The notes under the pieces were generated by a model. That model ran no database searches. It was given only the letters and a program-made list of their open reading frames with translations, and had not been told where the DNA came from. Below are positions 954 through 55,514 of a stretch of DNA of 64,000 bases, piece after piece. Numbering within the stretch: the stretch's first letter is position 1; each line of letters starts with the position of its first letter. The position numbers were made by a program, and so were the translations under genes. This DNA comes from a virus, in the IMG/VR virus record IMGVR_UViG_3300014656_000015, one strand, 5' to 3'.

Positions 954-996
954 CTTATAACGATAAGCAGCTAAGAGTTGGGCGCGAGACGCGCCC
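954..996 (-). promoter_or_regulatory. Hairpin-CTTAG element followed by a GTTATAAG putative phage promoter
   Basis: Minus strand reads GGGCGC-gtctc-GCGCCC-aact-CTTAG-N11-TATAAG, the same layout as 33261-33303 and 33591-33633. Confidence 0.7.
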
Positions 997-1015
997 GAAG
1001 GAAGGTAGGAATGGA

Positions 1016-1291
1016 TCAGGCCGCCTGTATCCGAGCAGGCCTGCGCAGACGAATCGTGGCGGGACGCGAAAGCTCGAGGCGGGAGAGCCGGCGCAGCTCC
1101 TGGTTCCGGGCCAGCTCGGCCTCCCTGCGGAACCACTTCTCGTAGCGCTCCTGCGTCATCGTGGATCCGTCGTCCCAGTGCGGTGGCATCTCGGTCTCCC
1201 AGTAAAGCCCGCAGCGGCAGACCCCGTTATCGGCTCGTGTCCCCGGGCGATACCCTGGGCACGGCTCCTTCTTCCTCTCCTTTGTCGACAT
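1016..1291 (-). CDS. Small hypothetical protein with Cys residues
   Basis: ATG at 1291 (MSTKERKKEPCPG...VCRCG) with GGAGGGAG RBS; overlaps the helicase 3' end; followed by a hairpin-CTTAG element. Confidence 0.55.
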   Translation of the reverse strand: MSTKERKKEPCPGYRPGTRADNGVCRCGLYWETEMPPHWDDGSTMTQERYEKWFRREAELARNQELRRLSRLELSRPATIRLRRPARIQAA

Positions 1292-3314
1292 CGTTGTCTC
1301 CCTCCACCAGGACCCGCTCCACGATGGACCGACCCTGGCCAAGCTCGTACACCCTCCGGAACCTGGGTAGGCTCGACACGATTGTCGCGCCGTACCCCTT
1401 CTCGATCAATCTGGAATCGGCAATCACGATGACGCCGACATCGGTCTCCGACCGGATGAGGCGGCCCGCACCCTGACGCAGGGCAAGCGTGGCCATGGGC
1501 ACGCTGAGATCCATGAATACGTTGCCGCCGCTCCGCTGCACCAGCTCCTGTCTCGCGTCGAAGATGGGGTCGTCGGGGACCGGGAACGGGATCTTGTCGA
1601 TGAAGAGCCCGATCAGTGCGTTGCCAGGAACATCGACTCCTGTCCAGAGACTGGCCACACCCAGCATAATGCTCCTCTCATCCTCCCGGAACCGGATCAA
1701 AAGGGTGTCCAGCGGGGCCTCCCCCTGTACCTGGACCCGTATCTCCGGGGGCAGACGTGGCACCAATGCCTCCCGCACCACCTTCAGCCGGGACCAGCTC
1801 GTGAACAGGAGCAGGGAACGGCCGCCGCAAAGCTCGACGAGCTCGAAGCACAGATCGGCCAGGCTCTTGTTGTAGAAGTCGATGTCCTCCTTCCCCGACT
1901 TCTTACCGGGGGGCTGCGGGAACCCGGGTGGAATGTACAGCACGCCCTGATTGGACAGATCGAACGGGGACGGGACGATGAGCCGGACCACCCCGGTAGG
2001 GGGCAGGCCTAGCTCCTCAGCGATGTAGTCGAAGCTGTCCTTCACCGTCATCGTGGCCGATACGAAGCAGACACTGTGCAGGCCACGGTGGAACAGGCGA
2101 CGGTTCAGGATGGGGCCCACCGCGATGGGCCTGGCCTCGAAACGGTCCCGGCGCGGGTCGGCGGAGCTCCCATCCTTCTCCTTCCAGTAGATCCAACCCA
2201 GATCCTGTTCCAGGCCCAGACTCTTCTCGAGACGGTTCCGGACCACAAGGGTGCGCTCGATACATTTCCGCACCCGCTCCACCTCCTTACGTATCCGGTC
2301 CGGATTGTCACCGATGTCCTCGACTCCGCCCTCGCTTACCTTCTGAATCCTGCTGGCAAGGACCGCTTCGACCCGGTCCACCACGGCCAGGGCCGCATCG
2401 GAGTCCTCGAACCACTCCCCCGGTGTCTTCGACACGTTCCCCGTCTTGATCAGGTCACGGGCCTGTGAATAGAGCCGGTTCCGCAGCTCCTCCAGCTCCG
2501 CCACCAGCTTGTCCTGCTCCAGCTCCCGGGCGAAACCAATGAGCGCCCGGAACGAACCATAGCTCAGGGTCCAGCCCAGCACGTTCCTGGCAATGTCGGG
2601 GAGCTCATGGGCCTCATCGAAGATGACGATGTCGTGTGCCGGCAAGTGATCCGTCGCCAGCAGGTAAAGATAGTGGTTGCATACCACAACATCAACGTTC
2701 CGGGCCCGATTCCATGCCTGCCGTGAGAAACAGCTCGTCTCGTAATGCCCGCAGGCCCGGCCCAGACACTCATCGCCTTGCCGGCTCACCAGTGGCCAGA
2801 CCCAGGGGTTGGTGCTGAGCTCCACCATGTCGCCCGAGACTGTGGATTCGAGCCACTTCTGGATCGTCTCGAGCTCCTCGACCTCCTGCTTCCGCAACGT
2901 GACCCGACCCCGGGACACGTTGTGGCGAAGCGAGGCGTAGGCGTCCCGACACAGGTAGTTGTTCCGCCCCTTCAGAAGAGCGTAGCGAAAGTTCCACGGC
3001 AGGACGCGCTGCAAAAAGGGCAGATCCTTGTTCACGATCTGGCCCTGCAACCCCTTCGTTGCTGTGGAGATGATGGTATGGACCGTGCCCGACCTACTCG
3101 GGTCCCGCATGAATCGAATCGCGGGAACCAGGGCCGCCAGGCTCTTCCCGCTGCCAGTCGGCGCCTCACCGACCAGGTGGGTGCCGGTCTCGAACGCATT
3201 CAGGAACGCATCGGCCAGCTCCACCTGGCCCGACCGATGTCGGTAACTGGACAGGGTCCTGGAGAGGGTGCCCCCCTCCCCGAAGACCTGCCACATCGGA
3301 CTCGTTGTCTCCAT
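1227..3314 (-). CDS. dinG: DinG/YoaA-family SF2 ATP-dependent DNA helicase (Fe-S type)
   Basis: Walker A EAPTGSGKS, KGRNNYLC, Cys cluster (C..C.C..C), DEAH box, SATM, FTSW, GVDVPG, IPFPVP, QGAGRLIR. Confidence 0.93.
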   Translation of the reverse strand: METTSPMWQVFGEGGTLSRTLSSYRHRSGQVELADAFLNAFETGTHLVGEAPTGSGKSLAALVPAIRFMRDPSRSGTVHTIISTATKGLQGQIVNKDLPFLQRVLPWNFRYALLKGRNNYLCRDAYASLRHNVSRGRVTLRKQEVEELETIQKWLESTVSGDMVELSTNPWVWPLVSRQGDECLGRACGHYETSCFSRQAWNRARNVDVVVCNHYLYLLATDHLPAHDIVIFDEAHELPDIARNVLGWTLSYGSFRALIGFARELEQDKLVAELEELRNRLYSQARDLIKTGNVSKTPGEWFEDSDAALAVVDRVEAVLASRIQKVSEGGVEDIGDNPDRIRKEVERVRKCIERTLVVRNRLEKSLGLEQDLGWIYWKEKDGSSADPRRDRFEARPIAVGPILNRRLFHRGLHSVCFVSATMTVKDSFDYIAEELGLPPTGVVRLIVPSPFDLSNQGVLYIPPGFPQPPGKKSGKEDIDFYNKSLADLCFELVELCGGRSLLLFTSWSRLKVVREALVPRLPPEIRVQVQGEAPLDTLLIRFREDERSIMLGVASLWTGVDVPGNALIGLFIDKIPFPVPDDPIFDARQELVQRSGGNVFMDLSVPMATLALRQGAGRLIRSETDVGVIVIADSRLIEKGYGATIVSSLPRFRRVYELGQGRSIVERVLVEGDNDVDKGEEEGAVPRVSPGDTSR

Positions 3315-3325
3315 CTCGCTTCCTC

Positions 3326-7054: not shown

Positions 7055-7495
7055 CTACTCGTCTTCCTCTTCCTCTTCCTCCTCTTCCTCCGATCCCTTC
7101 GGACCAAGCAGCTGGCGAAGCGGAATCCGAGTAGGGGTGCCGCCACTTGACTCCGGCGATACTTGCCGCGGCGTCGAGGCGCGGAGACCTAACATGGCGT
7201 ATCCAATCTTGTCCGCCCACGGACTCTCGTCGAACGCGGCTGCGTCACCCTGCGAGATCCGGTTGTTCTTGTCCATGTCCCGGATCATGATGAGCGCCTC
7301 CTCGTAGCGCTCCGGAGCTATCCCGTTCGGCCACAACGCCCGCATCGCGGCGGCACTGGCCCACGTCGAGTCCCCATAGGCCCTGTTCTTGCGGTCCACG
7401 AGAACGGCGGCGTCCAGCGCCATCTGGAGCCAGGCCACATCCTCGATTCCGGTCTCCTCCTGGATCGCGCTCAGGAGCTCCGGGTCGATCCTCAT
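7055..7495 (-). CDS. DUF1599/nucleotide-modification-associated domain 1-like protein with acidic tail
   Basis: RKNRAYGDS...IRDMDKNNRI...WADKIGYAML motif pattern; poly-Glu C-terminus. Confidence 0.65.
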   Translation of the reverse strand: MRIDPELLSAIQEETGIEDVAWLQMALDAAVLVDRKNRAYGDSTWASAAAMRALWPNGIAPERYEEALIMIRDMDKNNRISQGDAAAFDESPWADKIGYAMLGLRASTPRQVSPESSGGTPTRIPLRQLLGPKGSEEEEEEEEEDE

Positions 7496-8733
7496 CTTGC
7501 TCCCTCCTCATCGCTGCACCTCGACGATCTTGATACCACACAGCCCCGTCCGGCTCGAACGATGAACCCCTTCTGCAAGGGTCTCCTCACCGCGTTCCGA
7601 ACGTAGCGAGACAGGTCTCCCTTCTTCCTCTTGGTAGCCTTGATCCTCTCCTCACCGAAGATGGAGATGGCCAGGTCCTCGAGGTTGACCGGATGGTCAT
7701 GGTAGACCCTATGCAGGATTGCCACGAGCATGGACTCGAACTGCGTCAAGCCACGTGGTGTGAGACCAGGCTTCCCAACCAGATCCCTGGCCTGCTTCAA
7801 CAAGTCCAGTGACTTCTCACTTCCCATCACTTCCTCCTCCTTCTCTTCCTTGCCTCGAGACTTCGGTAAATAAGCCTCTAGCGTGTCACAGCGACTCCCA
7901 TCGACCCGAGCCACGATTCCCCAATGGGTTGGTAGTGGGAGTCGTGGAGTGCTATAGCCCTCCCGTACCCCCAACACGAAGGCACGACGCCTGTGTTGTG
8001 GAACCCCATACCCAGCCGCATCCAGGACGTCGGCACAAACATTGAAGCCTTGCCGGTTGGCCTCTGTGAAGAATGCCTCCCGGAGCTCCCGGAACGCGTC
8101 CTGGGTCAGGAGCGGCGGCACGTTCTCCATGGCAAAGCCGCTCGGCTCCAGCTCACCAATCACTCGCAGGAACTCGAGGATGAGGTTGTTGCGTGGGTCC
8201 GTGGGGCTTTGCTTGCCTGCCTTGGAGAAGCCCTGGCACGGCGGTCCTCCGAAGACTATCGAGACCTCACCCTTGCGCATCCCGAGAGCATCGAGGAGCA
8301 GGGACCCGGTGACCTTCCTGATGTCACCGATCACCATTACTCTGCACCCACCACTCCTCACCATGGAATTCGCACCGAATATGGCTGGGTCGTCCAAGGC
8401 AGGCCACTTCTCCCCCCCATTACTCCTCCTGGCCTCTTTCCTGACCTCCTTCTCGAACCGGGCCCGGTCCGCCTCCTCCACGAAGAGCCAGCGCCCACCC
8501 GGAGCCCCCAGGTTCAGGACGTAGGTGGCGGCTGCCGTCACGTCCCGCTCGACCGCTGCAATCACGTCGATCCCACCCTGGTGCATGCCCAGGGAGAAGC
8601 CGCCGCAGCCAGCGAAGAGGTCGATGCCGGTCATCGGGAGCTCCGGGGCCGCCGGGAGCAGGATGCCACCCGGGCTCAGCTCGTAACCAGGCGGGGCAAA
8701 GCTGTAGTTCTGCACAGCCACATAGGGTGTCAT
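7492..8733 (-). CDS. DNA (cytosine-5) methyltransferase (motifs I-VIII) with a C-terminal winged-helix-like domain
   Basis: DLFAGCGG (I), GDI, GGPPCQGFS (IV), ENV (VI), GVPQHRRRAF (VIII); no clear TRD or motifs IX-X. Confidence 0.85.
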   Translation of the reverse strand: MTPYVAVQNYSFAPPGYELSPGGILLPAAPELPMTGIDLFAGCGGFSLGMHQGGIDVIAAVERDVTAAATYVLNLGAPGGRWLFVEEADRARFEKEVRKEARRSNGGEKWPALDDPAIFGANSMVRSGGCRVMVIGDIRKVTGSLLLDALGMRKGEVSIVFGGPPCQGFSKAGKQSPTDPRNNLILEFLRVIGELEPSGFAMENVPPLLTQDAFRELREAFFTEANRQGFNVCADVLDAAGYGVPQHRRRAFVLGVREGYSTPRLPLPTHWGIVARVDGSRCDTLEAYLPKSRGKEEKEEEVMGSEKSLDLLKQARDLVGKPGLTPRGLTQFESMLVAILHRVYHDHPVNLEDLAISIFGEERIKATKRKKGDLSRYVRNAVRRPLQKGFIVRAGRGCVVSRSSRCSDEEGAR

Positions 8734-13141: not shown

Positions 13142-16100
13142 TCAGATGACCAGCTCGAGGTCGATGCCGTTGAGTGGGCTCTTGACGCCAAGGTAGCAGG
13201 TGCCCCGGGCCCTGGTGGGATCCGTGGCGCTCTGCTCCAGGCTGTTGATCCGAGCCGTGTTCACCGCCTTCTTCTCGTCGGTCAGCCAGAGGCTCAGGCC
13301 CTCCGAGATCATGCTGAGCCCATCCAGGAACGCCTGCGTGATGTTGTTCCGACCAATGTACCGGCGGAGCCCGGCCCGGTAGAACTTGGCGCAGAAGTCG
13401 ACCACCTTCACCACACTCTGCTCCCGGGTCTTCCAGGAGGTGGAGTCAGTTGTGACCTGATGCCTCGAGTAGACCGGACCCGTGTCCTCGCCGGCCTGGA
13501 TAATGATGTCGGCGCCACCCGCCGCCATCTGGTTCATCTGCCTGCGGGTGTACCGATCCGAGGTTCCGGTTACCCGGGTGAAGCCCGCCATGGTCCGCTT
13601 GGTCAGCGGGGTGTCCGGGTCGAGCCCGGCCACCTGGCCCACCTTGGCCGCACAGGCGTAGAACCCGTCCACGGCTTGCTCCACGCCATCCACCGTGGCA
13701 TAGAGCTGGTTCAGGTAGAGCATCCACATGCGCCGATCGAAGAAGCTGGTGCCGCGGTTATATACCGTGGTCACCTCGTCGTCCTTGTCCGAGATCGTGG
13801 CACCGCGCACCTTCACGCTGAAGCTCTCCGAGACCAGGGCAGCGGGGAAGGTGCCGGTGGCGTAGAAGCTGTCGTCGTTCTCGCCGGCTGCGAACACGAT
13901 GTTGGTCTGCACGATGGTACCGCCGAGGATGGCCCCCGTGATGTTCCAACGATACGCATCGTAGGCCACGTCCAGGAAGACGCCGTCGGACACGGCAATC
14001 GCGGTCGGATCGATGCCGAGCGCCTGCAGCGCAGCGGTCAGCGTCGGGATCTTGGTGTCGAACGTGGTCGTGGTCGGCACCGTGTCACCATCGTTGCCGC
14101 TGACCACGATCTCGTCCACCTTGCGCGTGGGCACCGCGAGGTGGAAGGCGCAGATCCGCTCCCCGCCCATGTCCGGGTCGCTCATCGCATCGACATGGGT
14201 CTGCATGATGGTGGCCACGTCGAGGTCGGAGCACATCGGTGCGATGCCGTAGACCTCCTTGGACTCGAGGAAGTCGAGGGCCGAGGCGAAGCCGGTTATG
14301 GTGCCGTCCGGCTTGTCCGCGGAAACCTCGTGCACCCCGAGCCCATAGATACGGGTATCCGGTGCGTTCAGCATGGCGATGTAGAGCCCGTAGGCCAGCG
14401 GGTTCTCCGGGGAGACCGGGGGCAACGCCGCCTCCAGCGCGTCGTAGCTGTCGAAGCCGTAGGTGGTTGGGTTCGTGGCCTGCGACGTCACGTCGGTCCG
14501 CAGTGCGTTGAACATGAGGTAGAGGTTGACCGCGACGGTGACGATGGGCTGGCCCAGGCTGTCCCGGAGGATGTCGTGCTTGATCCAGACATCGCCATTC
14601 GTGTCCACCATCAGATCCGGGGTCGGTACGGTCACACCCCACTGCGTGCTGCTCACCGCGTCCAGGTTCTTGGCAATGATGTACCACGTGGTGTAGGTGG
14701 CCGTGGTTGCCACCTCCCGATCCAGCTTCACGTACCCCGACACGGCCCCAGGGTGCGTCTCGATGACGTAGCCGAGCAGTGCATTGTCCGCATAGAGCGC
14801 ATCGCCTTGCCGCACGTTGAACGCGGTGCCGTAGTACGCACCTGCCGTCATGCCGAGCCCGTTCGGGGACGCGACGAGACCGGTCGATTCGGTGTGGAGC
14901 TCGATCTTGCTCTCGTAGCCACTCGTGGTCGACGTCAGCTTGACCAGGTTGGCGCCCGTGATCGAGGCGATGCTCGCCCCCAGCACGTTGTTGATCTGGG
15001 TCTCGATGGCAACGCGGGGACCCGCCCCACCGGTGGCCAGGAGCTGGGTATACGCGGTCACATGTGCATTCAGGAACGCTTCGTTCAGTGAGTCCAGGGT
15101 GACCCGGATCGCGTTGTTCGGGTTGGCCGCGGCAGCCGCGGTCGGATCCGCACCGTAGACGAGTCCGATGTAGTTGCCGGCCGGGGCCACGTTGCCGCTG
15201 GCGTCGGAGCGGAACGCGATGTTGACGCTCCACCATGCCTGGGACGCCACGTTGAGCTGAGAGATGATGGCCGCGATGTCAGCGGCTCCCGCAACGGCAC
15301 AGATCTGCGAGCTGCCGTTGACACTGATCGTGATGTTGGAGGTGTGCGGGAAGGTCCAGGCTGGGCCAGTGGAGTCCGTCGAGATGACCGGGTCGCCGCA
15401 GAGCGTGACGGTCTGCTTCCCGCTTCCGTCCACCTGAAGCACCAGGGTCTTGCCGTGCAGCGCCTTGCCCGTGCTGACATCGGTGGTACCCGTATGCGTC
15501 GCCGCACCCGGTGTAGCCAACAGGTTCTCGTTGAGGTCGAGGAGCGGGGTGAGCAGGTCCCCATCACCGTCGTTGACGACCGTGATCGTGGAGCCGCGCC
15601 GCAGGAAGCTCTGGGTTCGCAGCGCCTCCAGGTTGTAGGAGGTCAGGTTCATGAAGGCCCGGATCGAGCTCTCGATGATGTCGCGCTGCGTCCCGAGGCT
15701 CTTCGGATCCGGGAAGCTGCTCTGCTTGAGCAGGATCTTGTCCTGGATATAGGAGCCCACCCCGTAGTAGGTGTAGCCCTTGCCGTACCCAAGCTGATCC
15801 GGGGCATCGAGCAGGGTCCCACCCACGATCTGGATCGTCTTGTCCGCACCGGTCCCCGTGGTTCGCAGCTGCAGGTAGATCTTGGCCGTGGCCGGATTGG
15901 TCCAGGTGTACGCGTAGAACCCGGAGGGGGCCACGGTAGCCGTGTTGATGGCAGCCGCCACCTGGGCCGCGGTGAGTGCCGCCGTGTTCGGCATGGTGAA
16001 GCTCTGCAGCGGACCCCCGTTGACCCGGAGCGTGAGCGTCTTCAGCGCCATCGCCGTGTACAGGGACTGGTCCTTGGGAGCCGTCGCCACGGCGGGGCCA

Positions 16101-37825: not shown

Positions 37826-38183
37826 GCGTTGTGCCGCCAACCTGTCCTGGTTGGACGACGTGATCGACCGTATCAACGGCTGGTTCAGCGATCGGTTCAC
37901 GTTGACCAACATGCGGCAGAGTGCCATGGACCATCCGATCCACGGCAACGTTGTCCTGCGCCGCTACAGCATCGTGTTCCACGGCGGCAAGTTCGAGCAG
38001 GAGATCGAACCGGAGGAGGGGGAGGAGATCGAGGAGTTCATCAAGGAGGAGTGGGACGACACACCGTGCTGGCCCGGACCTGTCATGACCTACACCGATG
38101 GGGAGTGGGACTTCTGCGAGTGGGGCAACGGCCCCGATGGGTCCCCGGAGTTCTGGATCTTCCTGGATCCACTCGCGGAGTAG
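37818..38183 (+). CDS. Acidic hypothetical (putative early) protein
   Basis: GGGAGG RBS; coupled to the previous gene; very D/E/W-rich C-terminal half. Confidence 0.7.
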   Translation: MDERCAANLSWLDDVIDRINGWFSDRFTLTNMRQSAMDHPIHGNVVLRRYSIVFHGGKFEQEIEPEEGEEIEEFIKEEWDDTPCWPGPVMTYTDGEWDFCEWGNGPDGSPEFWIFLDPLAE

Positions 38184-38193
38184 GGGACGGAAG

Positions 38194-38218
38194 GAGGACT
38201 GGGGGGTCCTCTACTTAG
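38194..38218 (+). terminator. Putative non-canonical terminator (hairpin + CTTAG)
   Basis: GAGGAC-tggggg-GTCCTC-ta-CTTAG at the island end, convergent with late genes. Confidence 0.55.
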
Positions 38219-38225
38219 CTCAGTA

Positions 38226-39467: not shown

Positions 39468-39471
39468 CGCC

Positions 39472-39705
39472 TCACCCCCGTGTAAAGGTCGTGTCCACAC
39501 TCCGCATCGGGGGAGCTGACGATGGTGTTGCCGCGTACCGACTCTTCCGGAGCAGCAAGCGTTCGATCTCCTCCTGGGTTTTCCCGCTCGGTACGGGCCG
39601 GGCCGGCGCCCGCCGAATCACACTTCCGAGACCGGCCGGGGGCCGGGTCACCAGCGCGATCTTCTCCAGCTCGTCACGGAACCCATTCAGGACTGCGGGA
39701 TGCAT
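39472..39705 (-). CDS. Small internal head protein with a DELEKIA tag
   Basis: MHPAVLNGFRDELEKIA. Confidence 0.65.
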   Translation of the reverse strand: MHPAVLNGFRDELEKIALVTRPPAGLGSVIRRAPARPVPSGKTQEEIERLLLRKSRYAATPSSAPPMRSVDTTFTRG

Positions 39706-44939: not shown

Positions 44940-47900
44940 TCAGTAGCGCCAAGGCTTCTCCGGAGTCCCCTTACCAAAGGAGGCCCCCGAGATCAGGCCG
45001 GGTACCGGATGCGTGCCGTGGAACTCGGTGGTCCAGCCCTGCTGTGCGGCCTCGGTCAACGTGCTCTTGAGCCTGGTGTGGTTGAGCCGCGCCATCCAAT
45101 CCTCCTGGACATCGAGCGGGAGCAGCTTCACACCTCGGAGCACAGGGCTGTACTTGACCCCCTTCTCCTGAGCATGCTCCCGGTTCCACCGAGCCACGGC
45201 AGGCGTGCTGGCCAGATCGCCGCGCAGCAGCGCAGGGTGGTCCCCGGAGTCCTCGATCTCGGCCACGTTGCTCATGGCCCGGACCAGGAGCTCGGAGTTG
45301 CGACGTCGGATACCCTCCTTACCGTAGATGCTGTGGAGCTGCTGTGCCAGGAAACCCTGGGTTCGGTTGACCCCGGCCAGCGGCAGCAGCTGGTGTGGAT
45401 TGATGTACCCGGTCGTGATCGGATCCCCCTTACGGACCGCCTGACCCGCCTTCACGGTCAGCGCCGTGCCGGCCGGAACGTAGTGTCGGGTACCCCGTAT
45501 CATGACGCTGTGCCCACCGGCAGGGTCCTTCTTGATTGCCTCCACCGTCCCCTCCTTCGTGGCCAACGTTGCTGAATCCTTTACCTTCTGCGGAAGGTAG
45601 AGGAGAGAGGTAGCCCGGTCCAGTCCGGCAGCAGCCAGGCTCTGTTCCGCGCTCTCCTTGCCCTCATAAACTCCTCCTGAATGGAAGCTCCGCAGCGCGA
45701 GCTGGGTGCCCCGCTCCCCCAGTGCCTGGGCAGCCAGCACACCCACGTTCGTACCCAGGTCCGGCAGCTTTCCGGATTCGGTGAGCCCCATGCACTTCGC
45801 ACAGACCCCGGTATGGTGGTCGCAACGTATCGGGGAGCGCACCACGACCCGCGCCCGAGGATTGTTGTTGCGGATCTTGGTCACCAGATCATCGGTCAGT
45901 AGAGTATTTGCCGGAATCTCCTTGCCCCGGCCCAGCTTGACCGGAGCAACGGTGAAGCGTCCGAGCACGTCGGGGTCCTCCACACGCAACCCGATACCCC
46001 TCGCGGTCTCACAGTCCTCGGTATCCACCATCTGATCCATGGTGGAGTTCATCATCATCTTGGTCAGGTAGCCCGGTTCCCGGACGCTCTGCACCTTCTG
46101 CACGATGCCCTTGCGCCCGCCGCTGGTGGCCGACCAGTAGTCCATGGTCCGCAAGCCCTCCGCATAGGAACGGCGGACCGCGTTGGGGACGACTTCGCCC
46201 TTCCCGTCCACGAAGAGCACGGGTGCCGCCACCAGCTGCTTGTACCCGTTGCCCTTGATCCCCGCCGCCACCTCGAGCCGCGCCAACTGGGACTGGTTCC
46301 TGGGGTCCCGGGCTGCCTGCTTGAGGGCGGAGTCCAGCTTCCCCGACACCTCGGCGAAGGCATCGACGTACTGCTGCACGTCTCCGGGCTTGCTCAAATC
46401 GAGCCTGGATGTCTTCGTGGCAGCCGCACGGAGCAGGGGGTCCCGGATCTCACGGTGCGGCCTCATGTCCTCCAATCCCAGGGTAAAGCCCTCGGACGTG
46501 CTGACCTCGTTGCCCAGATCCTTGAGTCGGTTCGTCCGCTCCGGGTAGCCCTCACCGTCGAGCTGGGCCATTCGCTGGAACAGCTTGCCCTGCTCCCCCT
46601 TGGTAAGCCGGTACTGGAGGTCGGACAGCACGGGCTTCCTGAGCTCCTCCGGGAGCTCCTTGCTCACCCGGAGCCGACCCAGCGTGGTCCGGGTCGGCTT
46701 CCCGTCCGCCCCGGTCACCTTGACCACATCGGTCAACCCCACCTTCCCCTGTGCGTGGGCCCGTTCCAGCTCGGACTCCGTCTTGAAACTCTGGTTCGTC
46801 TTCTTGCCGACCTCGGTGGCCATGTAAAGGCCGACCTGCATCTCCTTGTCCGGGGTGTACATGACCCGGTGCGTGGCCGCGCTGAACAGGTTGCGGCTCG
46901 GGAACATGGCCTCGGCTTCGTGTACCGCTTCGTTGGAGATCGGGACGTAGGCAGACATCTGGTCCCCATCGAAATCGGCATTAAATCCGGAACACACCAA
47001 CGGATGTATCCCGATCGTCTTGGTATCGGTGAGGCGCGGCTTGAAGCTCTGCACGCTGTACCGGTGCAGCGCTGGATCCCGTTTGAGCATGACGGGCCGC
47101 TCCTGGACCACGCGGTCCAGTGTTCGAACAGCCAGTGGGTCATTCTCGTCCACCATCTTCTTGGCCTCGAGCGGACCGACACCGGCGGTACGACGGAGCT
47201 CGCGGACCACGAAGGGCTTGTACATCTCCTTGGCTGCCTTCCGCGGCAGCTCCACCTCGTCCAGCCCCAGCTTGGGGTTGGGCACGATGGTGCTGCGCAT
47301 CGTCAGATCCTGCTTCCGTTTGAGCAAGACGTTCTGGACGTAGCCCTCCTTGGGAGAGCCCTTGCCGGCGATGGTCTGGAGGATGCCGGAGAACTTGTTG
47401 TTGAGATGCCCGCCGACACCGGTCAACGAGCGCAGGTGGTCATAGATGTCGGCCTCGACCGGCGTGATCAAGGACTGCGGGGTGCCTGGCGGGAACTGGC
47501 CCGCCTTCATGTTCACCAGGGCCAGCCCCTTGTAAAGCTCGTTCAGATCGTCGGTCTGCAGCCGACCATCCTCCGTGATCGCGATGGGGCGCATCGCGGG
47601 GGGCAGGACCGGGACGTGCCGCATCATGTAGGCGTCGGTCGGCTTCATCTGGAGCCGGTCCAGCGCCTGCAGATACTTCACCTTGCGCCGGGTCTCGTTG
47701 AGGAGCTGGCCATTCAGCTTGGGCAGCCGAGCCTTCTCCCGTTCCAGGTCCGACTTCACGTCGATCCGGTCCAGTATCTTGCCGACCGCGGCGGGACCAT
47801 AGGTCACCCCGGCCTTGCCGGACTCGGTCACCACGTTGCCGTCGTCGGATACCCCGGCCTGGCCAGCGATGATGCTCTGGTACACTGGGGCCCGGATCCC

Positions 47901-50900
47901 GGCCAGGCTCATGATGGCCCGTTCGAAGACCGGGTTGGGCATCGGCTTGGCCAGGGTCAGGTGACTCCACCTTTTTCCATCCATTCCTCCCGTGATCTTC
48001 TCATCGAAGAGCCCGCCCCGCTCCGGCTTCTGATCCTTCATCCGGATCATCCTGCCGGCATCACGCAGTTCCCCACTGCTCATCTCGAGCGTGTCCTTGT
48101 CGGTCAACGGAACCAGATTGAGACTATTGCCGTCCCCCTCCATGTTCACGCCGAGACCCCTGAGGTAGCCGAGGAACTTGTTGTAGGCAAAGGTGGGACG
48201 AGGCGGTGGCAGCATTTCACCGGCTTGCAGCGCCCCCCAGAGCTCATCCCGGACACCACCCTGACTCTTGTCGCTCTTCCAGGTATTGGCCTCGCGAAGA
48301 TTGGCCCGCGCCCCGTGACTTAACATGGCGTAGGTACCCAGAGCACCGAATGCTTGCGCCCCGTGCTTCCCACCACCCCTGGGAACCAGGTTGTGGTCGT
48401 AGGCGCCACGGTCCCGGGACGCCATCTTCTTGTCCACCTGGTGCTCGAGCTTGAACACGTACTGATTCCCGGTGAACACCTTCGGAATGGTCCGGCCCGT
48501 GGCCGGATCGATCAGATCCTCCTTCTCCTTCAACCCCTCTTCCTTGAGCAGCTTCGAGACATGCTCCAGGTTGTCCTGGACCGTGAAGTTCTCTACCTGA
48601 ACCGGCCTCCCCCGCTTCTCCGCGACCTTCCCCGCCGCGGTCTCCAGGAGCTGACCCACATTCATGCGCCCCGCCACACCGAGCGGGTTCATGATGATGT
48701 CGATGGGCTTCCCATCCTTGGTCTGCGGCATCTCGGGGTCGGCAAGGATAGCGGTAACGATTCCCTTGTTTCCGTGCGCCGCGGCCAGCTTATCGCCGAC
48801 CTGCATCGGCTCTCGGGTCTTGACGTGAACCTCGACCCGATCCCGTCGCCGCATGACCCCGACCACTTCCCCCTCATGGTCCTCATCCCAGGTCACCGCC
48901 ATGTCCTTCTTCGGGCTGACGATGCTTTTATGCAGCAGCTGCAGCTTCTGCTCCTCCGTGGTCAGCTTGCGCTCCGCCATCGCCGCGACCAAGGTGTCCC
49001 CCGGCTTCACGCGCTGCCCCACCTGGACCACACCGGTATCGTCGAGCTTGGCCGCCTGATCCTTGCTCATCCGGTTGCGGAAATATGCCTGATACTTCTG
49101 CTTCCCGTCCAGCGATGCGTTCCGCAACGAGACCCCGGGCCGGTGCATATGCACCGAGGTCATCTTCTGCGCCGCGCTGTCGCTCAGCACGACCCCATCT
49201 TCGAAGGTGAGACCCTTCCATGGTAGATATGCCGTGGACAGATTTCTTCCGGGTGCGTACTGACCCCCCTTGGTGAAGTTGGTGTCCCCGATCAGTTGAC
49301 CCTCGGTCACCCTTTCCCCCACCTTCACCGTGGGTGTGCTATGCATGAACCCCGTCTTGTCGTTCAGTGGGTAGTGATTATAAATCGGGACATCGACCTT
49401 CTTCCCATCCCCGGTCCGAAGCGTAATCGCATCCTCGGTGACTCCTACCACCTCACCGGCCTGTGGTGCATGATGCGAGGCAAAGCTCCCGACCAGATCC
49501 ACCAGCGGCTTCTTGCCGATGACGGCCTGCACCAGTGGCACCTCGCCGTGCTCCACGGGCACGGCCTGGGACATGTGGCGACCCGCCATGGTAGCCCGGT
49601 TCGGGCTGTCGCTGTTGATGAAGGGGACCATGTTGGTGGCCAGTCCGAACATCTGCGCCGACTTCGGGACGATGTACTGCACGTCCCGCATCCGTACCGG
49701 CCTCACATCGTTCCCGGGTATGCTGGCCAGCACCATTCCGCCCTCGGCAGGGACGAAGCCACGTTTGGTGCGCCGCACCGCGTCGGGCAGAGCCACGGTG
49801 CTGTCATGGGCTCGCTCCACCGAGACCAACTCCGTCTTCCCACTCTTCGCGTTGATCAGCGGAATCTGAAGGGCGTTACCCACCTTCCGCGCACCGAGAC
49901 TGAGCTGGAGCGCGACCCCGGTGTTGATACCCTCCGGTGTGTCCAACGGGTCCAGGACACCGAAGTGGGACGGGTCCACCAGCTTTGCGTCCTCGGTGAT
50001 CCGGTTGGCATCGGCCACGCCGCCTTCCCCGGCGATGGTGGTACGCATATGGTTCCCGATCATGCGTAGCGGATTGGTCTGCTGTGCCGTGTTGGCCAGG
50101 GAGACCTGACTGAAGAAGTCATTGACGGGGCGGCCAAAGGTGTCGGGCCCCACGATGTCACGGACCCGCGCCTTCCGATCCAGATTGTTACGAACCCTCC
50201 GCTCGATGACCGGCCGTGTCCCCTCGATCCGTTCCTTCATGTAGTCTTCTACGGCATAGAAGTCTTTGAAGATCTGGTTATCTCGAACATCGGGTCGCTC
50301 CTGTCCCCGGGAGATCCCGAGCAGCCGACCCGTGGAGCGGAGCAACGCATCTTGATTGATCCTATCGATCGGAGCCCCAAGGGTACGCCGGGTCACCTCC
50401 GGATGCAGGTAGGAGCTCTCCAGCTTGTCCCGGATCACGCCAGCCGCCTCCTGCTCATCGCGAAAGGTGGCCTTCGGATCGACCCGTGCCGCGAAGTCCT
50501 TGATGACCTTCCCCGTCGGGATGGGCCGGCCCCTGGTATCCAGCTTGTTGGCGTTCAGGATCTCCTTGCCCCACGCCTGCTGCAACGTGTCGTCACTCAC
50601 CCCCATCGCCTTGAGGATGGGGTAGAGCGGAGGCTTGGCACCACCCAGCTGGACATGGAACTTCCGCGCTTCCGGGTTGAAGCCGACGTGGAGCGGCCTA
50701 CCCTTGATGTTGAAGAAGCTCTCCAGCTCCCCGTTCTGCTTGACCTTGGTGTAGACCCCGGGTCGGAGCCGGAACTGATTCTCCACCTGAAACTCGGAAC
50801 CGTTGACGATGAAGCTGTACCGGTTCGTGATCTTGGGCAAGTTAGCGATACGCTGGGTGGACCTGTCGATCACCTCCCCCGTCGCCTTGTCCCGAAGCAC

Positions 50901-51113
50901 CATGGTCGCCTTGACCGGGATGCCGAAGGTACGCTGGCTCAGCTTGGCCGCCTTCTGAGCCGTGAAGTCCGCGCTGGAGACATTGTCGTCGATCTGGACA
51001 TCTTCCAGCTCGAGGACGTGCTTGCCGCCCTCGATAGGGAAGGTGCCACGGACCGCCTCGGTAACCCCCTCCTTGAGTGCGTCAAAGCTCTCTCGGGGAT
51101 CGAGCCTGGCCAT
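44940..51113 (-). CDS. rpoBC: Single-chain DNA-directed RNA polymerase, fused beta and beta' homolog (2057 aa)
   Basis: Beta motifs SFIVNG, HFGVLDPLDTPEG, NRATMAGRHMSQAVP, GDKLAAAHGNKG, NPLGVAGRMNVGQ, KLEHQVDKK. Beta' motifs KPERGGLFD, PVLPPAMRP, RDPALHR, FNADFDGDQM, bridge helix GRKG..PGYLTK, trigger loop GERGTQLALRSFH. Confidence 0.96.
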   Translation of the reverse strand: MARLDPRESFDALKEGVTEAVRGTFPIEGGKHVLELEDVQIDDNVSSADFTAQKAAKLSQRTFGIPVKATMVLRDKATGEVIDRSTQRIANLPKITNRYSFIVNGSEFQVENQFRLRPGVYTKVKQNGELESFFNIKGRPLHVGFNPEARKFHVQLGGAKPPLYPILKAMGVSDDTLQQAWGKEILNANKLDTRGRPIPTGKVIKDFAARVDPKATFRDEQEAAGVIRDKLESSYLHPEVTRRTLGAPIDRINQDALLRSTGRLLGISRGQERPDVRDNQIFKDFYAVEDYMKERIEGTRPVIERRVRNNLDRKARVRDIVGPDTFGRPVNDFFSQVSLANTAQQTNPLRMIGNHMRTTIAGEGGVADANRITEDAKLVDPSHFGVLDPLDTPEGINTGVALQLSLGARKVGNALQIPLINAKSGKTELVSVERAHDSTVALPDAVRRTKRGFVPAEGGMVLASIPGNDVRPVRMRDVQYIVPKSAQMFGLATNMVPFINSDSPNRATMAGRHMSQAVPVEHGEVPLVQAVIGKKPLVDLVGSFASHHAPQAGEVVGVTEDAITLRTGDGKKVDVPIYNHYPLNDKTGFMHSTPTVKVGERVTEGQLIGDTNFTKGGQYAPGRNLSTAYLPWKGLTFEDGVVLSDSAAQKMTSVHMHRPGVSLRNASLDGKQKYQAYFRNRMSKDQAAKLDDTGVVQVGQRVKPGDTLVAAMAERKLTTEEQKLQLLHKSIVSPKKDMAVTWDEDHEGEVVGVMRRRDRVEVHVKTREPMQVGDKLAAAHGNKGIVTAILADPEMPQTKDGKPIDIIMNPLGVAGRMNVGQLLETAAGKVAEKRGRPVQVENFTVQDNLEHVSKLLKEEGLKEKEDLIDPATGRTIPKVFTGNQYVFKLEHQVDKKMASRDRGAYDHNLVPRGGGKHGAQAFGALGTYAMLSHGARANLREANTWKSDKSQGGVRDELWGALQAGEMLPPPRPTFAYNKFLGYLRGLGVNMEGDGNSLNLVPLTDKDTLEMSSGELRDAGRMIRMKDQKPERGGLFDEKITGGMDGKRWSHLTLAKPMPNPVFERAIMSLAGIRAPVYQSIIAGQAGVSDDGNVVTESGKAGVTYGPAAVGKILDRIDVKSDLEREKARLPKLNGQLLNETRRKVKYLQALDRLQMKPTDAYMMRHVPVLPPAMRPIAITEDGRLQTDDLNELYKGLALVNMKAGQFPPGTPQSLITPVEADIYDHLRSLTGVGGHLNNKFSGILQTIAGKGSPKEGYVQNVLLKRKQDLTMRSTIVPNPKLGLDEVELPRKAAKEMYKPFVVRELRRTAGVGPLEAKKMVDENDPLAVRTLDRVVQERPVMLKRDPALHRYSVQSFKPRLTDTKTIGIHPLVCSGFNADFDGDQMSAYVPISNEAVHEAEAMFPSRNLFSAATHRVMYTPDKEMQVGLYMATEVGKKTNQSFKTESELERAHAQGKVGLTDVVKVTGADGKPTRTTLGRLRVSKELPEELRKPVLSDLQYRLTKGEQGKLFQRMAQLDGEGYPERTNRLKDLGNEVSTSEGFTLGLEDMRPHREIRDPLLRAAATKTSRLDLSKPGDVQQYVDAFAEVSGKLDSALKQAARDPRNQSQLARLEVAAGIKGNGYKQLVAAPVLFVDGKGEVVPNAVRRSYAEGLRTMDYWSATSGGRKGIVQKVQSVREPGYLTKMMMNSTMDQMVDTEDCETARGIGLRVEDPDVLGRFTVAPVKLGRGKEIPANTLLTDDLVTKIRNNNPRARVVVRSPIRCDHHTGVCAKCMGLTESGKLPDLGTNVGVLAAQALGERGTQLALRSFHSGGVYEGKESAEQSLAAAGLDRATSLLYLPQKVKDSATLATKEGTVEAIKKDPAGGHSVMIRGTRHYVPAGTALTVKAGQAVRKGDPITTGYINPHQLLPLAGVNRTQGFLAQQLHSIYGKEGIRRRNSELLVRAMSNVAEIEDSGDHPALLRGDLASTPAVARWNREHAQEKGVKYSPVLRGVKLLPLDVQEDWMARLNHTRLKSTLTEAAQQGWTTEFHGTHPVPGLISGASFGKGTPEKPWRY

Positions 51114-51481: not shown

Positions 51482-51549
51482 GGGTACCGGGTACGGTACC
51501 CCTTTCTTAGCGCAAAACGCCTCGTTTGCCATGGTATAAGAATATTGAG
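51482..51549 (+). promoter_or_regulatory. Hairpin-CTTAG followed by a GGTATAAGAATATTGAG promoter-like motif (no RBS follows)
   Basis: 17-bp identity to 33626-33642; no start codon/RBS pair downstream. Confidence 0.65.
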
Positions 51550-52715
51550 CAGAGAGAGTTTACTCTCTTCTGCTTGGGTCTCCGTGCAGCGCGGCACGGG
51601 GCTGAGTCGGGGCTCTCTCCCACCCGACGCGCGACCGTACCGGAAGACCTCGGTACGGGTAAAGAGGCGGGTCCGTGGGGCGCCACCGATAGTCTCGAGG
51701 AGGGACGATGCGGGGCGCCTAGGGAGCAAATACCACGGATAGGACGGTGGGGTGCCGTCCAGAGGCCGGAAACTGGTGGGCTCGAAGTAGGGTCTCCTTT
51801 GGGAAATGGTCGAAAGACCCCCCATCCGCGGGATGGGTGCCCAGCTCCTGAAAAGGGTACCACCAAATGCCGCTCCCCGGGGTAACCATCCGGGCTAAAC
51901 AAAGTGGTTCGCCATCCGAGGCAAGGCGGGAATCCTCGGCGATCGCCATTCGAGGTAAGGCGGAACCCTCGACGACCTGGGCATGTCGCTAAACTGCCCT
52001 CTGACTGCGTTACCGCTGTCGCAGTCAGCAGACTCTCCAGCAGCGGCGACCGTCGAAATCAGCCCCCCTAGCTGGGGTTCCCACGTCGCAACGGCGTTGG
52101 GACTAAATGGAAGCGTTGACGGTGTCCCCCCTCGGATCCACGACGAGGGCACAAGGGAGTTCGTGGACCACCCACCAAAAGCCTCCGGTGGGTGAAACGG
52201 AGCGGGCCTGCGGCCGCCGATGTACCATGAGAATGGGATCATCGGCGCGAAGGGTAGTCCGCAGGAGCCGGGAATGGGGAGCCCGGCATGTTCCTGTCCC
52301 CGGAAGGGGGCGCCACGAAAGTGGTAGGGTGTGGGGTTCAACTCCCCACGATCTAGGTGACTAGGTCGCCCGTTGGGGGCATACCCGCTGCTGGGAGGCG
52401 GCTTGGCGCGTTGGTCACGTGGCAAGTCGTCCACCTCAAGTCTGAAGGAGGGGAATGACCCCCTCTCCGGATGACTCCAGTCGTGGCGCCCCCTTCCGAG
52501 AGCAGGAACGGGTTCTGCCCTCTGAGGAGGGAAGCGGTGTGGAGGTCCTACCTGAACGGGTTCGATTCCCTTGGGTAGGGTAGGATCTCGGACTCCTGTG
52601 GTGACTGGCCAGTCACCAGGTCTGCAGGAGCGCCACAGGTTCGGAACGGGGATGACTACCTCGTGAAGGACTGCGCATCGCTTCTTTCCTCAGGGGGCGG
52701 AACCCGCCCTGGCAG
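51545..52715 (+). ncRNA. Putative ~1.15-kb highly structured non-coding RNA (tandem pseudoknots, T-loops)
   Basis: No credible ORF; nearly continuous helices; at least 7 H-type pseudoknots in 51876-52202; T-loop hairpins at 52331-52349 and ~52548-52580; long-range pairing 52302-52313/52486-52496. Confidence 0.7.
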
Positions 52716-52914
52716 TAGCAAAAATCAATCCTATTAGATAGTTATAAGAACTATGAAGAGTTGGTGAGTTCGATCCACGACTCCTTGGACCATCCCCTCG
52801 GCGAAGACCCGAGGCACAGAGTCCAAGGAGCCCTTTCGTGGGTAGTCGAACCCGACCCGCCATCCGAGGTAAGGCGGGAATCCTCGGTGACCCGGGCATG
52901 TCGGAAAACTACCC
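51910..52914 (+). repeat. Pseudoknot-forming repeat CGCCAT(C/T)CGAGG(C/T)AAGGCGG..CCTCG(G/A), 3 copies
   Basis: Copies at 51910-51939, 51944-51972 and 52858-52887; the last two are each followed by a GAC..GGGCATGTCG..AAACT.CCC unit. Confidence 0.85.
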
Positions 52915-52990
52915 AATCTAACGGAGCGTCGTATCGTCTCCGAGCCCATTGCTGCGCTGGTGCGGCGATGTGCCCCGATGCGACGTTCCC
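52750..52990 (+). ncRNA. Second structured RNA / 5' leader of the MYG1 gene
   Basis: Starts after TATAAG at 52743; long hairpin (GTTCGA-TCCACGA-CTCCTTGGAC/GTCCAAGGAG-TCGTGGG-TCGAAC), then a copy of the pseudoknot pair. Confidence 0.6.
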
Positions 52991-53014
52991 ATGCTTCTCG
53001 TTTGGAGGGCTGAG

Positions 53015-53992
53015 ATGGCAAAGAAGGTCGTCACCCACCCGGGTGACGCCCATCTCGACGACCTGCTCTCGGTGGCGGTGGCCTTGGCCATCGACCCCGG
53101 GATCAGGGTCGTCGAACGCCGGGAGCCCACCGAGGAGGAGCTGGCGGACCCCGAGGTCATCGTTCTGGACGTCGGGGGGGAGCTCTCCCCCCTGTGCCAG
53201 AGCTACGACCACCACCAGTTCCAGCGCGATGCAGCGGCGGAGTGCACTCTGTCCCTGTTCGTGCGGGAGCTCGAGTGGGAGGGGGAGTCCGTGTTCGAGG
53301 CGTTCAGAATCACGAAGTGGTTCCAAACGCTCCGGGTCGCGGACTCAAAGGGTCCCTTCCAGCTGGCGAAGAGTTTGGGCACGACCCCCGAGGTCGTGTT
53401 CCGGCTCCACTCGCCGCTGGAGGGAGCTCTCCTCCAGCTCTTCCAGGCGGAGACGGTTTGGGAGGTCGCTACGTACCACCCCGAACTGCCTGCGGGCTGG
53501 CTGTTGCCGAACAGCCTGCCCGAGGTACTCCACCTGGTGGGCAAAGGCCTCCTCGACGGAGCGGTGGAGAATCTGAAGAGGGTGAAAGCCCTCGACAGCC
53601 TCTGCCGCATTGTCGAAGTTGACGGTGTCCAGGGCTACGTCCTGGAATCCGAGGACACCGTCGGCACCGAGACGTGGCGGGAGCGTTCGGCTCCCGGGAC
53701 CGCATTCAGCGTTGTCTACGACAACCGCGGTCCCGGCTGGACGCTCTACCGCTACGACGATGACTCCCGGATCGACTTCTCCCGGCTCGAGGGCCGGGAA
53801 GAGGCGACCTTCGCCCACAAGGGCGGCTTCATTGCGAAGACCGCCTCGAGGGAGAGGGTCGGGCTCGAGCAGGCGCTCGAGCTGGTCCGGGCCGCCATCG
53901 TCGTACAACCACGTGAGTGCGCCTGTGGTTCGGGAGAACCGAGCCCGGGTGTCTCCGGTGGTTGCTCGTCCGGGTCCCCGTACTGCGGGTGA
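53015..53992 (+). CDS. MYG1-family (DHH-like) exonuclease
   Basis: VTHPGDAHLDDLL, VLDVGG, YDHHQ, FAHKGGFIA motifs; Cys-rich C-terminal tail. Confidence 0.85.
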   Translation: MAKKVVTHPGDAHLDDLLSVAVALAIDPGIRVVERREPTEEELADPEVIVLDVGGELSPLCQSYDHHQFQRDAAAECTLSLFVRELEWEGESVFEAFRITKWFQTLRVADSKGPFQLAKSLGTTPEVVFRLHSPLEGALLQLFQAETVWEVATYHPELPAGWLLPNSLPEVLHLVGKGLLDGAVENLKRVKALDSLCRIVEVDGVQGYVLESEDTVGTETWRERSAPGTAFSVVYDNRGPGWTLYRYDDDSRIDFSRLEGREEATFAHKGGFIAKTASRERVGLEQALELVRAAIVVQPRECACGSGEPSPGVSGGCSSGSPYCG

Positions 53993-53994
53993 TC

Positions 53995-54263
53995 CGGCTC
54001 GGTAGGGGCCTCGGGGCACAATCGGGGGGTCTGTGCAGGAGATCCTGCCCCCCGAAGCGCAAGTCCTGATTCGATACGGTGCAACACGAGCACCGTCCCG
54101 GCGTGCAGATAAGCCGGGGTCAGGCAAACCCTCCAGTGGCGGAGGGGTGGAGGAAGCTGCGTGGAGAGCAGCGGAATCGACCCCAACGCAGAACCGGGGG
54201 TTACTGTGACGAAGGGACGATGTTGAAGATCCCGGGAGAGAGCTGCGTGAGCTCTCTTCTTAG
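53995..54263 (+). ncRNA. Structured non-coding element downstream of MYG1, ending in hairpin-CTTAG
   Basis: Consecutive hairpins: TCGGGGG/CCCCCGA, ACGGTGC/GCACCGT, CCCGGC/GCCGGG, CCCTCC/GGAGGG, GCTGC/GCAGC; terminal AGAGAGCT/AGCTCTCT-t-CTTAG. Confidence 0.5.
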
Positions 54264-54397
54264 CCCATAATCGGCATTGCAATTCCCCGATACTTCTTGG
54301 GATAAGGAGGGTGGACCCCATATTTGCCGACAACGGAGTCGGCCTATCGGAGGTTCGGGATGGCCTGCACCGGAGTCGGTCATCGAAAGGAGACGAG

Positions 54398-55480
54398 ATG
54401 CATGTTGTTTTAGAGGTGAGCTGGACAGATGCCGTCGCGCATCGCAGCGATCCGGGGACGCGGCTAATCCAGATCGATCTGGCGGCCCCGGAGTGGACCG
54501 AGGAGCGGCGCAACGCACTGCTCCAGCTTGGAGAGGAGATGGAGGCGGGGCGTATCCTGGTCAGCGGGCTCACCGCGATGACCCTGGAGGCCTTGCTGGC
54601 GAGGCTCGATGCGTTCCACGAGGAGCAGCAGAGGAAGACGAAGGAACGGGAGGAAGCACGGCAGCAGAAGGAGGAGGAGCGGCTGAAGCGGGAGGAGAAG
54701 GAGTGGGAGCGCATCCGCACCAGGCTCGAGGAGGGAGAGCTGCCCCCGGCACTGTACAGGATGTCACGGCCCACCCTGACCCAGGATGGGGTCACGCAAT
54801 CCTACGAACGGTACGAGGCGGATCGAAACCACTGGACATGGTCCAGGCTCGAACAGGAGCCTAAAATGATGCACAGCTTCGAGGAGCTCGTTGCACGGCT
54901 CAACGCGAATCGGCTCGCGGAGGCCCACGACAAGCTCCAGGCTCTCCTCAAGGAGCGGCAGGACGCGGAGCTGAAGAGGCTGGCCCGGACCCGACTCACC
55001 ACCGACATCCTGGATGTGTGCCTCACCGAGGAACAGCGCGAGCGCTGGAAGGCCGACATGCTGCCGGCAAAGGAGCGGGATCAAGCCATCGAGGACTACG
55101 TCTTCGAGCGGCTCTTTCCATCCTCGTCCGAGCCCGCGCCCGCGCCCTATAGGAAGCTGACCCCCCAGGACATCGGTACCCATCACGAGGACTGCGAAGG
55201 GTACCCAGGGGCTGTCTTCAACAGCACCGATGCGAACGAGGTCGACGCCATGACCTGGGCTGCATCGAAGGCATTGGAAGCGCGGATTGATCAACGGCAA
55301 CGTGGTACGCTTCAGTCCGACGACTGGGAGGTGAGCCTCACCATCAGGGATCATACGGTCCACTGTGGGGGGTGCCCGAGCAATCACTACGAGGACCTTC
55401 GGCATCGCTACGGCGCCCGGATCGGCGTCAAGCACACCCCGACCAACCTGAGCTGGTCCAGGGAGTACGCCCTGGACTAG
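54398..55480 (+). CDS. Hypothetical (putative early) protein with a coiled coil
   Basis: GAAAGGAG RBS; GATAAG promoter variant at 54301; E/R-rich coiled coil; His/Cys cluster at the C-terminus. Confidence 0.7.
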   Translation: MHVVLEVSWTDAVAHRSDPGTRLIQIDLAAPEWTEERRNALLQLGEEMEAGRILVSGLTAMTLEALLARLDAFHEEQQRKTKEREEARQQKEEERLKREEKEWERIRTRLEEGELPPALYRMSRPTLTQDGVTQSYERYEADRNHWTWSRLEQEPKMMHSFEELVARLNANRLAEAHDKLQALLKERQDAELKRLARTRLTTDILDVCLTEEQRERWKADMLPAKERDQAIEDYVFERLFPSSSEPAPAPYRKLTPQDIGTHHEDCEGYPGAVFNSTDANEVDAMTWAASKALEARIDQRQRGTLQSDDWEVSLTIRDHTVHCGGCPSNHYEDLRHRYGARIGVKHTPTNLSWSREYALD

Positions 55481-55489
55481 ACCTGCCAC

Positions 55490-55514
55490 GGGCCGTTCCG
55501 GCCCATTTCCTTAG
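55490..55514 (+). terminator. Putative non-canonical terminator (hairpin + CTTAG)
   Basis: GGGCC-gttcc-GGCCC-atttc-CTTAG, convergent with the portal gene; no TATAAG follows. Confidence 0.55.

Follow-up and report, generated by a model that had tools for sequence, protein, structure and literature searches.

Most of the phage-encoded multisubunit RNA polymerases known so far come from jumbo phages, and little has been described of how they terminate. The single-subunit enzyme of phage T7 responds to class II termination or pause signals (ATCTGTT type), which are short, fixed in sequence and hairpin-free. In T4-type phages, promoter-early stem-loop (PeSL) cassettes are known (Arbiol et al. 2010, PMC2839356; Comeau et al. 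2014, PMC4122927), and virions of Salmonella phage Arash hold polymerase subunits together with a sigma factor (PMC10585845). The element analyzed here, a hairpin followed by the word CTTAG, recurs nine times in a 64,000-nucleotide stretch of viral DNA (IMG/VR record IMGVR_UViG_3300014656_000015, hereafter the window) that encodes a fused beta-beta' polymerase of the multisubunit type. The nine elements are probably transcription terminators, or more generally 3'-end-forming signals, of units headed by a [TG]ATAAG promoter-like box, and are best read as a family-wide, family-specific variant of the ordinary intrinsic terminator rather than as a new kind of signal. Terminators are suggested by the position and orientation of the elements, by their conservation despite changing stems, and by the full U-tracts of relatives with lower guanine plus cytosine (GC) content.

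Association of hairpins with CTTAG

The window has a GC content of 64% and carries most genes on the - strand, with small + strand gene islands at ~31.4-34.0 kb, 37.4-38.2 kb and 51.2-55.5 kb. Scanned mechanically, the window had CTTAG at 13 places (11 on the + strand, 2 on the - strand), nine of which were preceded by a perfect 5-9-bp stem ending 0-6 nt upstream. Random positions had such a hairpin in 16% (stem of at least 5 bp) or 6% (at least 6 bp) of cases, giving binomial probabilities of 3e-5 and 1.5e-7, respectively. Among all 1024 five-letter words, CTTAG showed the strongest association with a preceding hairpin of at least 6 bp (8/13, P=1.9e-7), and the runner-up words (TTAGC, CCTTA, TCTTA) overlapped it. 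The four hairpin-less copies were found within genes (three) and in the divergent gap before gene 31421 (at 31395). Folded as RNA, the nine sites had predicted energies of -8.5 to -17.4 kcal/mol (z-scores of -1.6 to -4.7 relative to shuffled sequences), so that the stable GC-rich stem-loop of an intrinsic terminator was present at every site.

All nine sites of the original prediction were recovered at their coordinates, as was the variation of stem sequences with pairing kept. Its dimensions required adjustment: stems spanned 5-9 bp instead of 5-8, spacers 0-6 nt instead of 1-6, and loops 3-8 nt instead of 5-8, five sites having loops of 3-4 nt. The motif was also longer than described: the hairpin and its pyrimidine tail lead into [C/T]TTAG, and TAT or TAC comes after five further bases, this last triplet lying exactly 5 nt past CTTAG at seven of the nine sites. 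The pyrimidine-rich tails before CTTAG read AATTC, CAATTC, ATTTC, CTTT, TTT or AACT. The elements are as follows.

963-996, - strand: element 1, stem GGGCGCG/CGCGCCC (996-980), tail AACT, CTTAG at 975-971, five bases, TAT
32829-32866, + strand: element 2, stem TCGGTCC/GGACCGA, 8-nt loop, tail TTT, CTTAG at 32854-32858, five bases, TAT; TATAAG at 32872
33261-33294, + strand: element 3, stem GGCCCG/TGGGCC, tail AATTC, CTTAG at 33282-33286, five bases, TAT; TATAAG at 33298
33591-33624, + strand: element 4, stem GCCCCG/CGGGGC, tail CAATTC, CTTAG at 33612-33616, five bases, TAT; TATAAG at 33628
33988-34021, + strand: element 5, stem GCCTC/GAGGC, tail AATTCC, CTTAG at 34009-34013, five bases, TAT
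38193-38226, + strand: element 6, stem GGAGGAC/GTCCTCT, tail A, CTTAG at 38214-38218, five bases, TAC; closes the two-gene unit 37406-38183
51482-51510, + strand: element 7, stem GGGTACCG/CGGTACCC, tail CTTT, CTTAG at 51506-51510
54234-54263, + strand: element 8, 9-11-bp stem AGAGAGCT/AGCTCTCT, 3' arm continuing into TCTT before CTTAG at 54259-54263
55490-55522, + strand: element 9, stem GGGCCG/CGGCCC, tail ATTTC, CTTAG at 55510-55514, five bases, TAC; opposes the converging portal gene

Rfam and transfer RNA (tRNA) scans gave no match at or near the nine sites, and a search of viral contigs for TTCCTTAG-N8-13-TATAAGAAT returned 42 single chance matches and no relative. The rest of the genome does not specifically avoid CTTAG: a third-order Markov model expects 6.5 and 4.9 copies on the two strands, about as observed, and at this GC content every word with TTA, TAA or TAG in it is rare. 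Avoidance of DdeI-type (CTNAG) restriction sites was ruled out as well, CTCAG and CTGAG being common.

Position relative to genes and promoters

All nine elements were located downstream of, and co-oriented with, a gene, at 0-21 nt from its stop codon (seven sites) or ~230-245 nt (two sites). In element 3 the stem begins on the final base of the TAG that stops gene 32899-33261, and element 8 lies 245 nt past the stop codon of gene 53015-53992, with a GATAAG at 54108 in between. As originally predicted, three elements oppose a converging gene or open reading frame (terminase, portal and open reading frame 38226-39500) with no promoter behind them. Element 5 faces the terminase gene, whose TAA stop codon sits inside CTTAG on the other strand. 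Two of these converging genes are:

34010-35887, - strand: large terminase gene
55538-57340, - strand: portal protein gene

The window contained 17 copies of ATAAG, 15 of them intergenic. Each intergenic copy formed a G[GT][TG]ATAAG box, 10-50 nt ahead of a ribosome-binding site GGAAAGGAG. These promoter-like boxes define about 11 units, nine of which are closed by a hairpin-CTTAG element.

32184, 32245, 32872, 33298, 33628, 37377, 51180, 51535, 52743, 54108, 54301 and 63604, + strand: [TG]ATAAG boxes, promoter-like
9007 and 959, - strand: [TG]ATAAG boxes, promoter-like
32871-32877, + strand: example of a [TG]ATAAG promoter-like box

At five of the nine sites CTTAG was followed within 11-24 nt by TATAAG and then by a ribosome-binding site, forming a composite junction between consecutive units. 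The promoter of the next unit begins 11 nt past the CTTAG of element 1 (fold of -14.3 kcal/mol, z-score -2.8), and 24 nt downstream of element 7, which itself closes a short unit begun by the TATAAG at 51180.

Conservation in relatives

IMG/VR relatives with polymerases 55-63% identical to that of the window were represented by contigs of 88-178 kb, one of them a complete genome of 177,773 bp with terminal repeats. The family appeared to comprise phages of roughly 170-190 kb with the same fused beta-beta' polymerase, and at least 179 relatives of the portal gene were found in IMG/VR. Those studied in detail had GC contents of 50-61%: G6 and G7, contigs of a close relative (61% GC) sharing 67-80% nucleotide identity with the window, and G1 to G4 (50-58% GC). 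Conservation was judged on matching junctions rather than on generic tallies. A search for any fold before TTAG proved too permissive, and a tally of the words following T-tracts at 74 family loci was swamped by hairpins within genes; neither was used.

G6 and G7 contained 13 CTTAG, 11 of them in the same context by eye, with the tail consensus (C)AAWTYC-CTTAG. The counterpart of element 1 in G6 (3642, - strand) had a different stem (GGGCCCA/TGGGCCC), and the stem at the terminase junction also differed between the window and G6/G7. Composite junctions of terminator and TATAAG were found in G6 as in the window. In G1 to G4 a hairpin and a true T-tract (e.g., CTTTTTCCTTAG or TCTTTTCTTAG) led into [C/T]TTAG-CTRGT-YAT, mostly in intergenic positions, typically 20-60 nt past a same-strand gene and often abutting a converging gene. 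At matching junctions, the more distant relatives had CTNGTYAT behind [C/T]TTAG. In more distant relatives, a pattern search gave 16 matches versus 3 for the reversed control.

Two junctions could be followed across the family. At the terminase 3' junction, a hairpin, a pyrimidine tract and TTAG or TTAC were kept in eight distinct relatives with unrelated stem sequences. At the portal 3' junction, compared across 65 unique relatives with portal identities down to ~40%, a stable fold and a pyrimidine tract ending in TTAG occurred in 23, while any other purine-containing word ended the tract in at most 5 of the 65. Many of these terminators were bidirectional (A-tract/hairpin/T-tract). The stop codon of the converging gene was rejected as the source of TTAG: it supplies the TTA in only 5 of the 23 portal junctions, and it explains none of the tandem sites.

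Read in reverse complement, the box has stop codons in two or three frames (e.g., TGAcTAGcTAAg), and converging genes very often end inside the box or at most 12 nt away (34009-34013 in the window; 106667, 103531, 91371 and 25612 in G1; 78224 and 156925 in G2). In relatives the opposite strand reads ATG ACC AGC TAA, but a mini open reading frame was ruled out, since the window has TAT/TAC and no ATG. Two further arrangements were seen in relatives. In G1 (14290-14690), ~230 bp of AT-rich sequence containing a TATAAG box are enclosed by two TTAG boxes that point inward and have the inverted repeat ATCATGTTAGTGAT in common; the segment is possibly an origin or an insulated control region. G2 carries at ~89190-89400 three tandem 79-bp units, each with a hairpin AGAGAGG...TCTCTCT followed by AGATGTTTTAC, which adjoin a TTAG-box terminator.

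Comparison of the window with G6 (one genome pair) also displayed an exchange of genes between junctions. The genes flanking the terminase-adjacent island were common to both, and the junction at element 2 was near-identical to those at 37843 and 38390 in G6 (stem TCGGTCC...GGACCGA, CTTAG, TATAAGAATTATGGAAAGGAG), while the genes between junctions were unrelated, three in the window and two in G6.

The U-tract of the elements

A terminator-like signal at 3' ends, as originally proposed, fits the data best; the accompanying description of a signal lacking a U-tract was overstated. Tails in the window were pyrimidine-rich, with 3-5 U within 8-11 nt, broken up by A and C. Lower-GC relatives had true U-tracts ending in the same CUUAG (CUUUUUCCUUAG, UCUUUUCUUAG), which argues for a variant of the intrinsic terminator rather than for a hairpin next to an unrelated sequence signal. 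On this comparison, the missing U-tract of the window is a GC-eroded tail; the tract had been overlooked because it is eroded to 3-5 U in a phage of 64% GC. In a scan of 31-39 kb for at least 5 U in the 8 nt after the stem, only the site at 32829 passed. The canonical U-tract terminator reported after the major head gene is real, and hairpin terminators were otherwise few among the - strand late genes.

23017-24141, - strand: major head protein gene (match to the major head protein family)
22986-22953, - strand: canonical intrinsic terminator after the major head gene, 14-bp stem then TTTTTTGG

Proposed mechanism and alternative explanations

In the proposed mechanism, a GC-rich RNA hairpin would fold directly past the stop codon, leaving the polymerase on a short pyrimidine- or U-rich hybrid, (C)AAUUC-CUUAG in the clade of the window and UCUUUUCUUAG in lower-GC relatives. 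The UUA of CUUAG would then lie ~5-10 nt past the stem, in the hairpin-dependent release window of bacterial-type polymerases, which matches the usual release window of intrinsic termination. The fixed [C/T]TTAG, with TAT or TAC five bases later, would be a family-specific box at and just beyond the release point, and may make up for the weak U-tract of a 64% GC genome. The acting enzyme would probably be the fused beta-beta' polymerase of the phage with a phage sigma-like factor. Between consecutive units, a terminator and the next promoter would together constitute a composite junction, and genes are exchanged between such junctions.

Several points weigh against this mechanism. We infer termination, the 3' end and the acting polymerase from sequence. 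Apart from the site at 32829, the tails in the 31-39 kb scan fall short of a standard U-tract criterion, so that efficiency without a helper could be low. The sequence stays conserved for ~8 nt beyond the point where release would likely occur, and intrinsic termination of the plain type leaves this unexplained. A release register that is fixed would be expected to tolerate less variation than the spacer between stem and CTTAG displays, at 0-7 nt and up to 12-20 nt in two relatives. Pfam Sigma70_r2 gave no match in G1 or G2, and the window does not contain the sigma-like gene. Terminators of Arash ended in TTAG in only one of the three cases seen.

Given the family-wide conservation at and past the point of release, a sequence-specific role may fall to the polymerase, to a bound factor or to a processing step. 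The strongest version of this idea, tentative and on balance unlikely, is that [C/T]TTAG-N5-YAY is a true sequence-specific termination determinant of a large family of fused beta-beta' phage RNA polymerases, read by the enzyme or by a dedicated phage factor. If so, the enzyme would read it in the downstream duplex or in the non-template strand, termination would be efficient with almost no U-tract in high-GC genomes, and phage units could be insulated from the rules of host polymerase.

A signal for RNA processing or stability appeared improbable. The polymerase would read through, a phage or host endoribonuclease would cut at or near CUUAG or inside the downstream box, and the hairpin would shield the new 3' end from exonucleases. 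The conserved stretch beyond the expected release point, which runs to five bases plus TAT (CTGGTYAT in relatives), is easier to understand if it is part of the RNA, and the weak U-tracts of the window point the same way. However, the ordinary hairpin and U-tract terminators at the same junctions of lower-GC relatives suffice for release, read-through at converging junctions would produce antisense RNA to late genes, and no candidate nuclease was identified.

Less probable again is a factor-dependent roadblock, in which a phage protein bound to duplex [C/T]TTAG-N5-YAY would halt the polymerase on the pyrimidine tract, in the manner of Reb1 or TTF-I with Pol I, or of mTERF. It would account for a fixed-register sequence of ~13 bp just past a T-rich release element and for a box always oriented with transcription, and a conserved helix-turn-helix DNA-binding protein (31421-32176) stands at the head of the island in relatives. 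No binding protein was identified or tied to the box, though, and the downstream half of the box is weakly conserved in the window; moreover, the known systems need no hairpin, yet hairpins are universal here.

That hairpin and CTTAG act as an upstream activating or recognition part of the next promoter, -35-like or similar to the hairpin promoters of phage N4, as had also been suggested, is very improbable. Small DNA hairpins with 5-7-bp stems in a phage packaging its polymerase do recall the promoters of the N4 virion RNA polymerase, and TATAAG starts exactly 11 nt past CTTAG at four sites. Over the window and relatives, however, the distance to the next promoter took values of 11, 13, 24, 34, 35 and 42 nt (13, 34, 35 and 42 in relatives), five [TG]ATAAG boxes had no CTTAG, and three or four sites opposing converging genes had nothing to transcribe. 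The hairpins of N4 occur upstream of early genes and have loops of 3 nt and a conserved sequence. In the elements analyzed here, stems vary, loops have 3-8 nt and the position is downstream of genes; the polymerase is multisubunit and not N4-type.

Just as remote is the other suggested alternative, a DNA recombination site in which hairpin and CTTAG would be the single-strand substrate of an HUH or tyrosine enzyme moving cassettes (IS200/IS605-like or integron attC-like): cassette genes are replaced between junctions in close relatives and a TnpB element lies nearby, but the hairpin sequences all differ, CTTAG lies outside the stem with no CTAAG partner upstream (no inverse core), the element also closes the conserved, non-mobile terminase and portal junctions across the family, each cassette has its own promoter unlike integron cassettes, and the subset of larger open reading frames searched included TnpB but no integrase or Y1 transposase.

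Polymerase and recognition of the signals

The fused polymerase of the window is a plausible candidate for the enzyme acting on these signals.

44940-51113, - strand: fused beta-beta' multisubunit-type RNA polymerase gene, 2057 aa (Pfam Rpb2_6, Rpb1_2, Rpb1_5 and others)

Its nearest cultured relatives are distant (~30% polymerase identity) and comprise Vibrio phages D69, D181 and D148, in which the match is full-length, and Salmonella phage Arash, in which it covers residues 6-1466 (71%). The TATAAG box, with an invariant G at the last position, was common to the relatives examined as [TGC]ATAAG, and a GGTATAAG box was also found ahead of genes in Arash. As GGTATAAG precedes Arash early genes, the promoter signal would span the whole family. 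Homologues of the Arash sigma factor gp10 were found in G1 and G2 (E ~1e-22, by BLAST only). Given the shared promoter box and the gp10 homologues, a phage holoenzyme likely reads both the promoter and the terminator signals. In positions 1-50000 of Arash, GGTATAAG precedes many early-region genes (e.g., at 46637, 42620, 37872, 36100, 34983, 32942 and 20674, - strand).

Other features of the window

The region 51536-53010 (~1.5 kb) is started by the TATAAG boxes at 51535 and 52743 and holds no convincing open reading frame. It contains several strings resembling tRNA T-arms (GGTTCAACTCC, GGTTCGATTCC, GAGTTCGATCC) and a repeated element of ~55 nt (51913-52000 versus 52860-52915); tRNA and Rfam scans of the region gave no match. 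Among all called genes, + strand promoter units ended mostly in TAG (8/15) and - strand genes mostly in TGA (25/42).

The - strand TATAAG box at 9007 drives a unit that includes a DNA methyltransferase gene (7492-8733, - strand; phrog_116, E 3e-45). The first gene of the terminase-adjacent island (31421-32176, + strand) encodes a protein with an excisionase/MerR-like helix-turn-helix N-terminus (phrog_6401, phrog_66), whose position at the island head is kept in G1, G2 and G6. The TnpB gene had as sole nucleotide relatives in phage records the transposase genes of Thermobifida and Saccharomonospora phages.

35874-37358, - strand: IS605-type TnpB gene (OrfB_IS605, Cas12f1-like TNB and helix-turn-helix domains), overlapping the 5' end of the terminase gene by 14 nt

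Comparison with known systems

A single promoter box ([TGC]ATAAG) and a single terminator signature (hairpin, pyrimidines, TTAG) are common to the relatives examined. How a bacterial-type enzyme terminates on a weak U-tract could become apparent from such a fixed sequence at the point of release, which would likewise serve as an easy rule for annotating transcription units in uncultured genomes of this family. Composite junctions would also account for the swapping of small accessory genes. Arash, a cultured phage that shares the promoter box and packages its polymerase, offers an experimental way in.

The elements resemble intrinsic terminators in their GC-rich hairpin past the stop codon, their U- or pyrimidine-rich stretch, their co-orientation with the gene and the UUA in the release window; relatives display full U-tracts and, at converging junctions, bidirectional A-tract/hairpin/T-tract forms. 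They differ in the fixed CUUAG that ends the tract and in the conservation downstream of it (five bases and TAT/TAC, or CTGGTYAT in relatives). To our knowledge, the canonical model of intrinsic termination includes no such box. With T7 class II signals they would share a short fixed sequence contributing to termination by a phage polymerase, but hairpins are universal here and the enzyme is of the beta-beta' type.

Like PeSL cassettes, the units have composite terminator/promoter junctions on either side of small genes whose function is unknown. Blocks of conserved late genes border the variable islands in which these units sit, with junctions conserved and the genes between them swapped among close relatives (here the single pair of window and G6). 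A stem-loop terminator and an early promoter share one intergenic module, as in PeSL, at five of the nine sites and in G6 also. Unlike PeSL, which have a sigma-70 consensus promoter and belong to T4-type phages, the units carry a [TG]ATAAG box in a different family with a fused beta-beta' polymerase. Their promoter ([TGC]ATAAG across relatives) is probably read by the phage-encoded polymerase, and their terminator carries a TTAG box.

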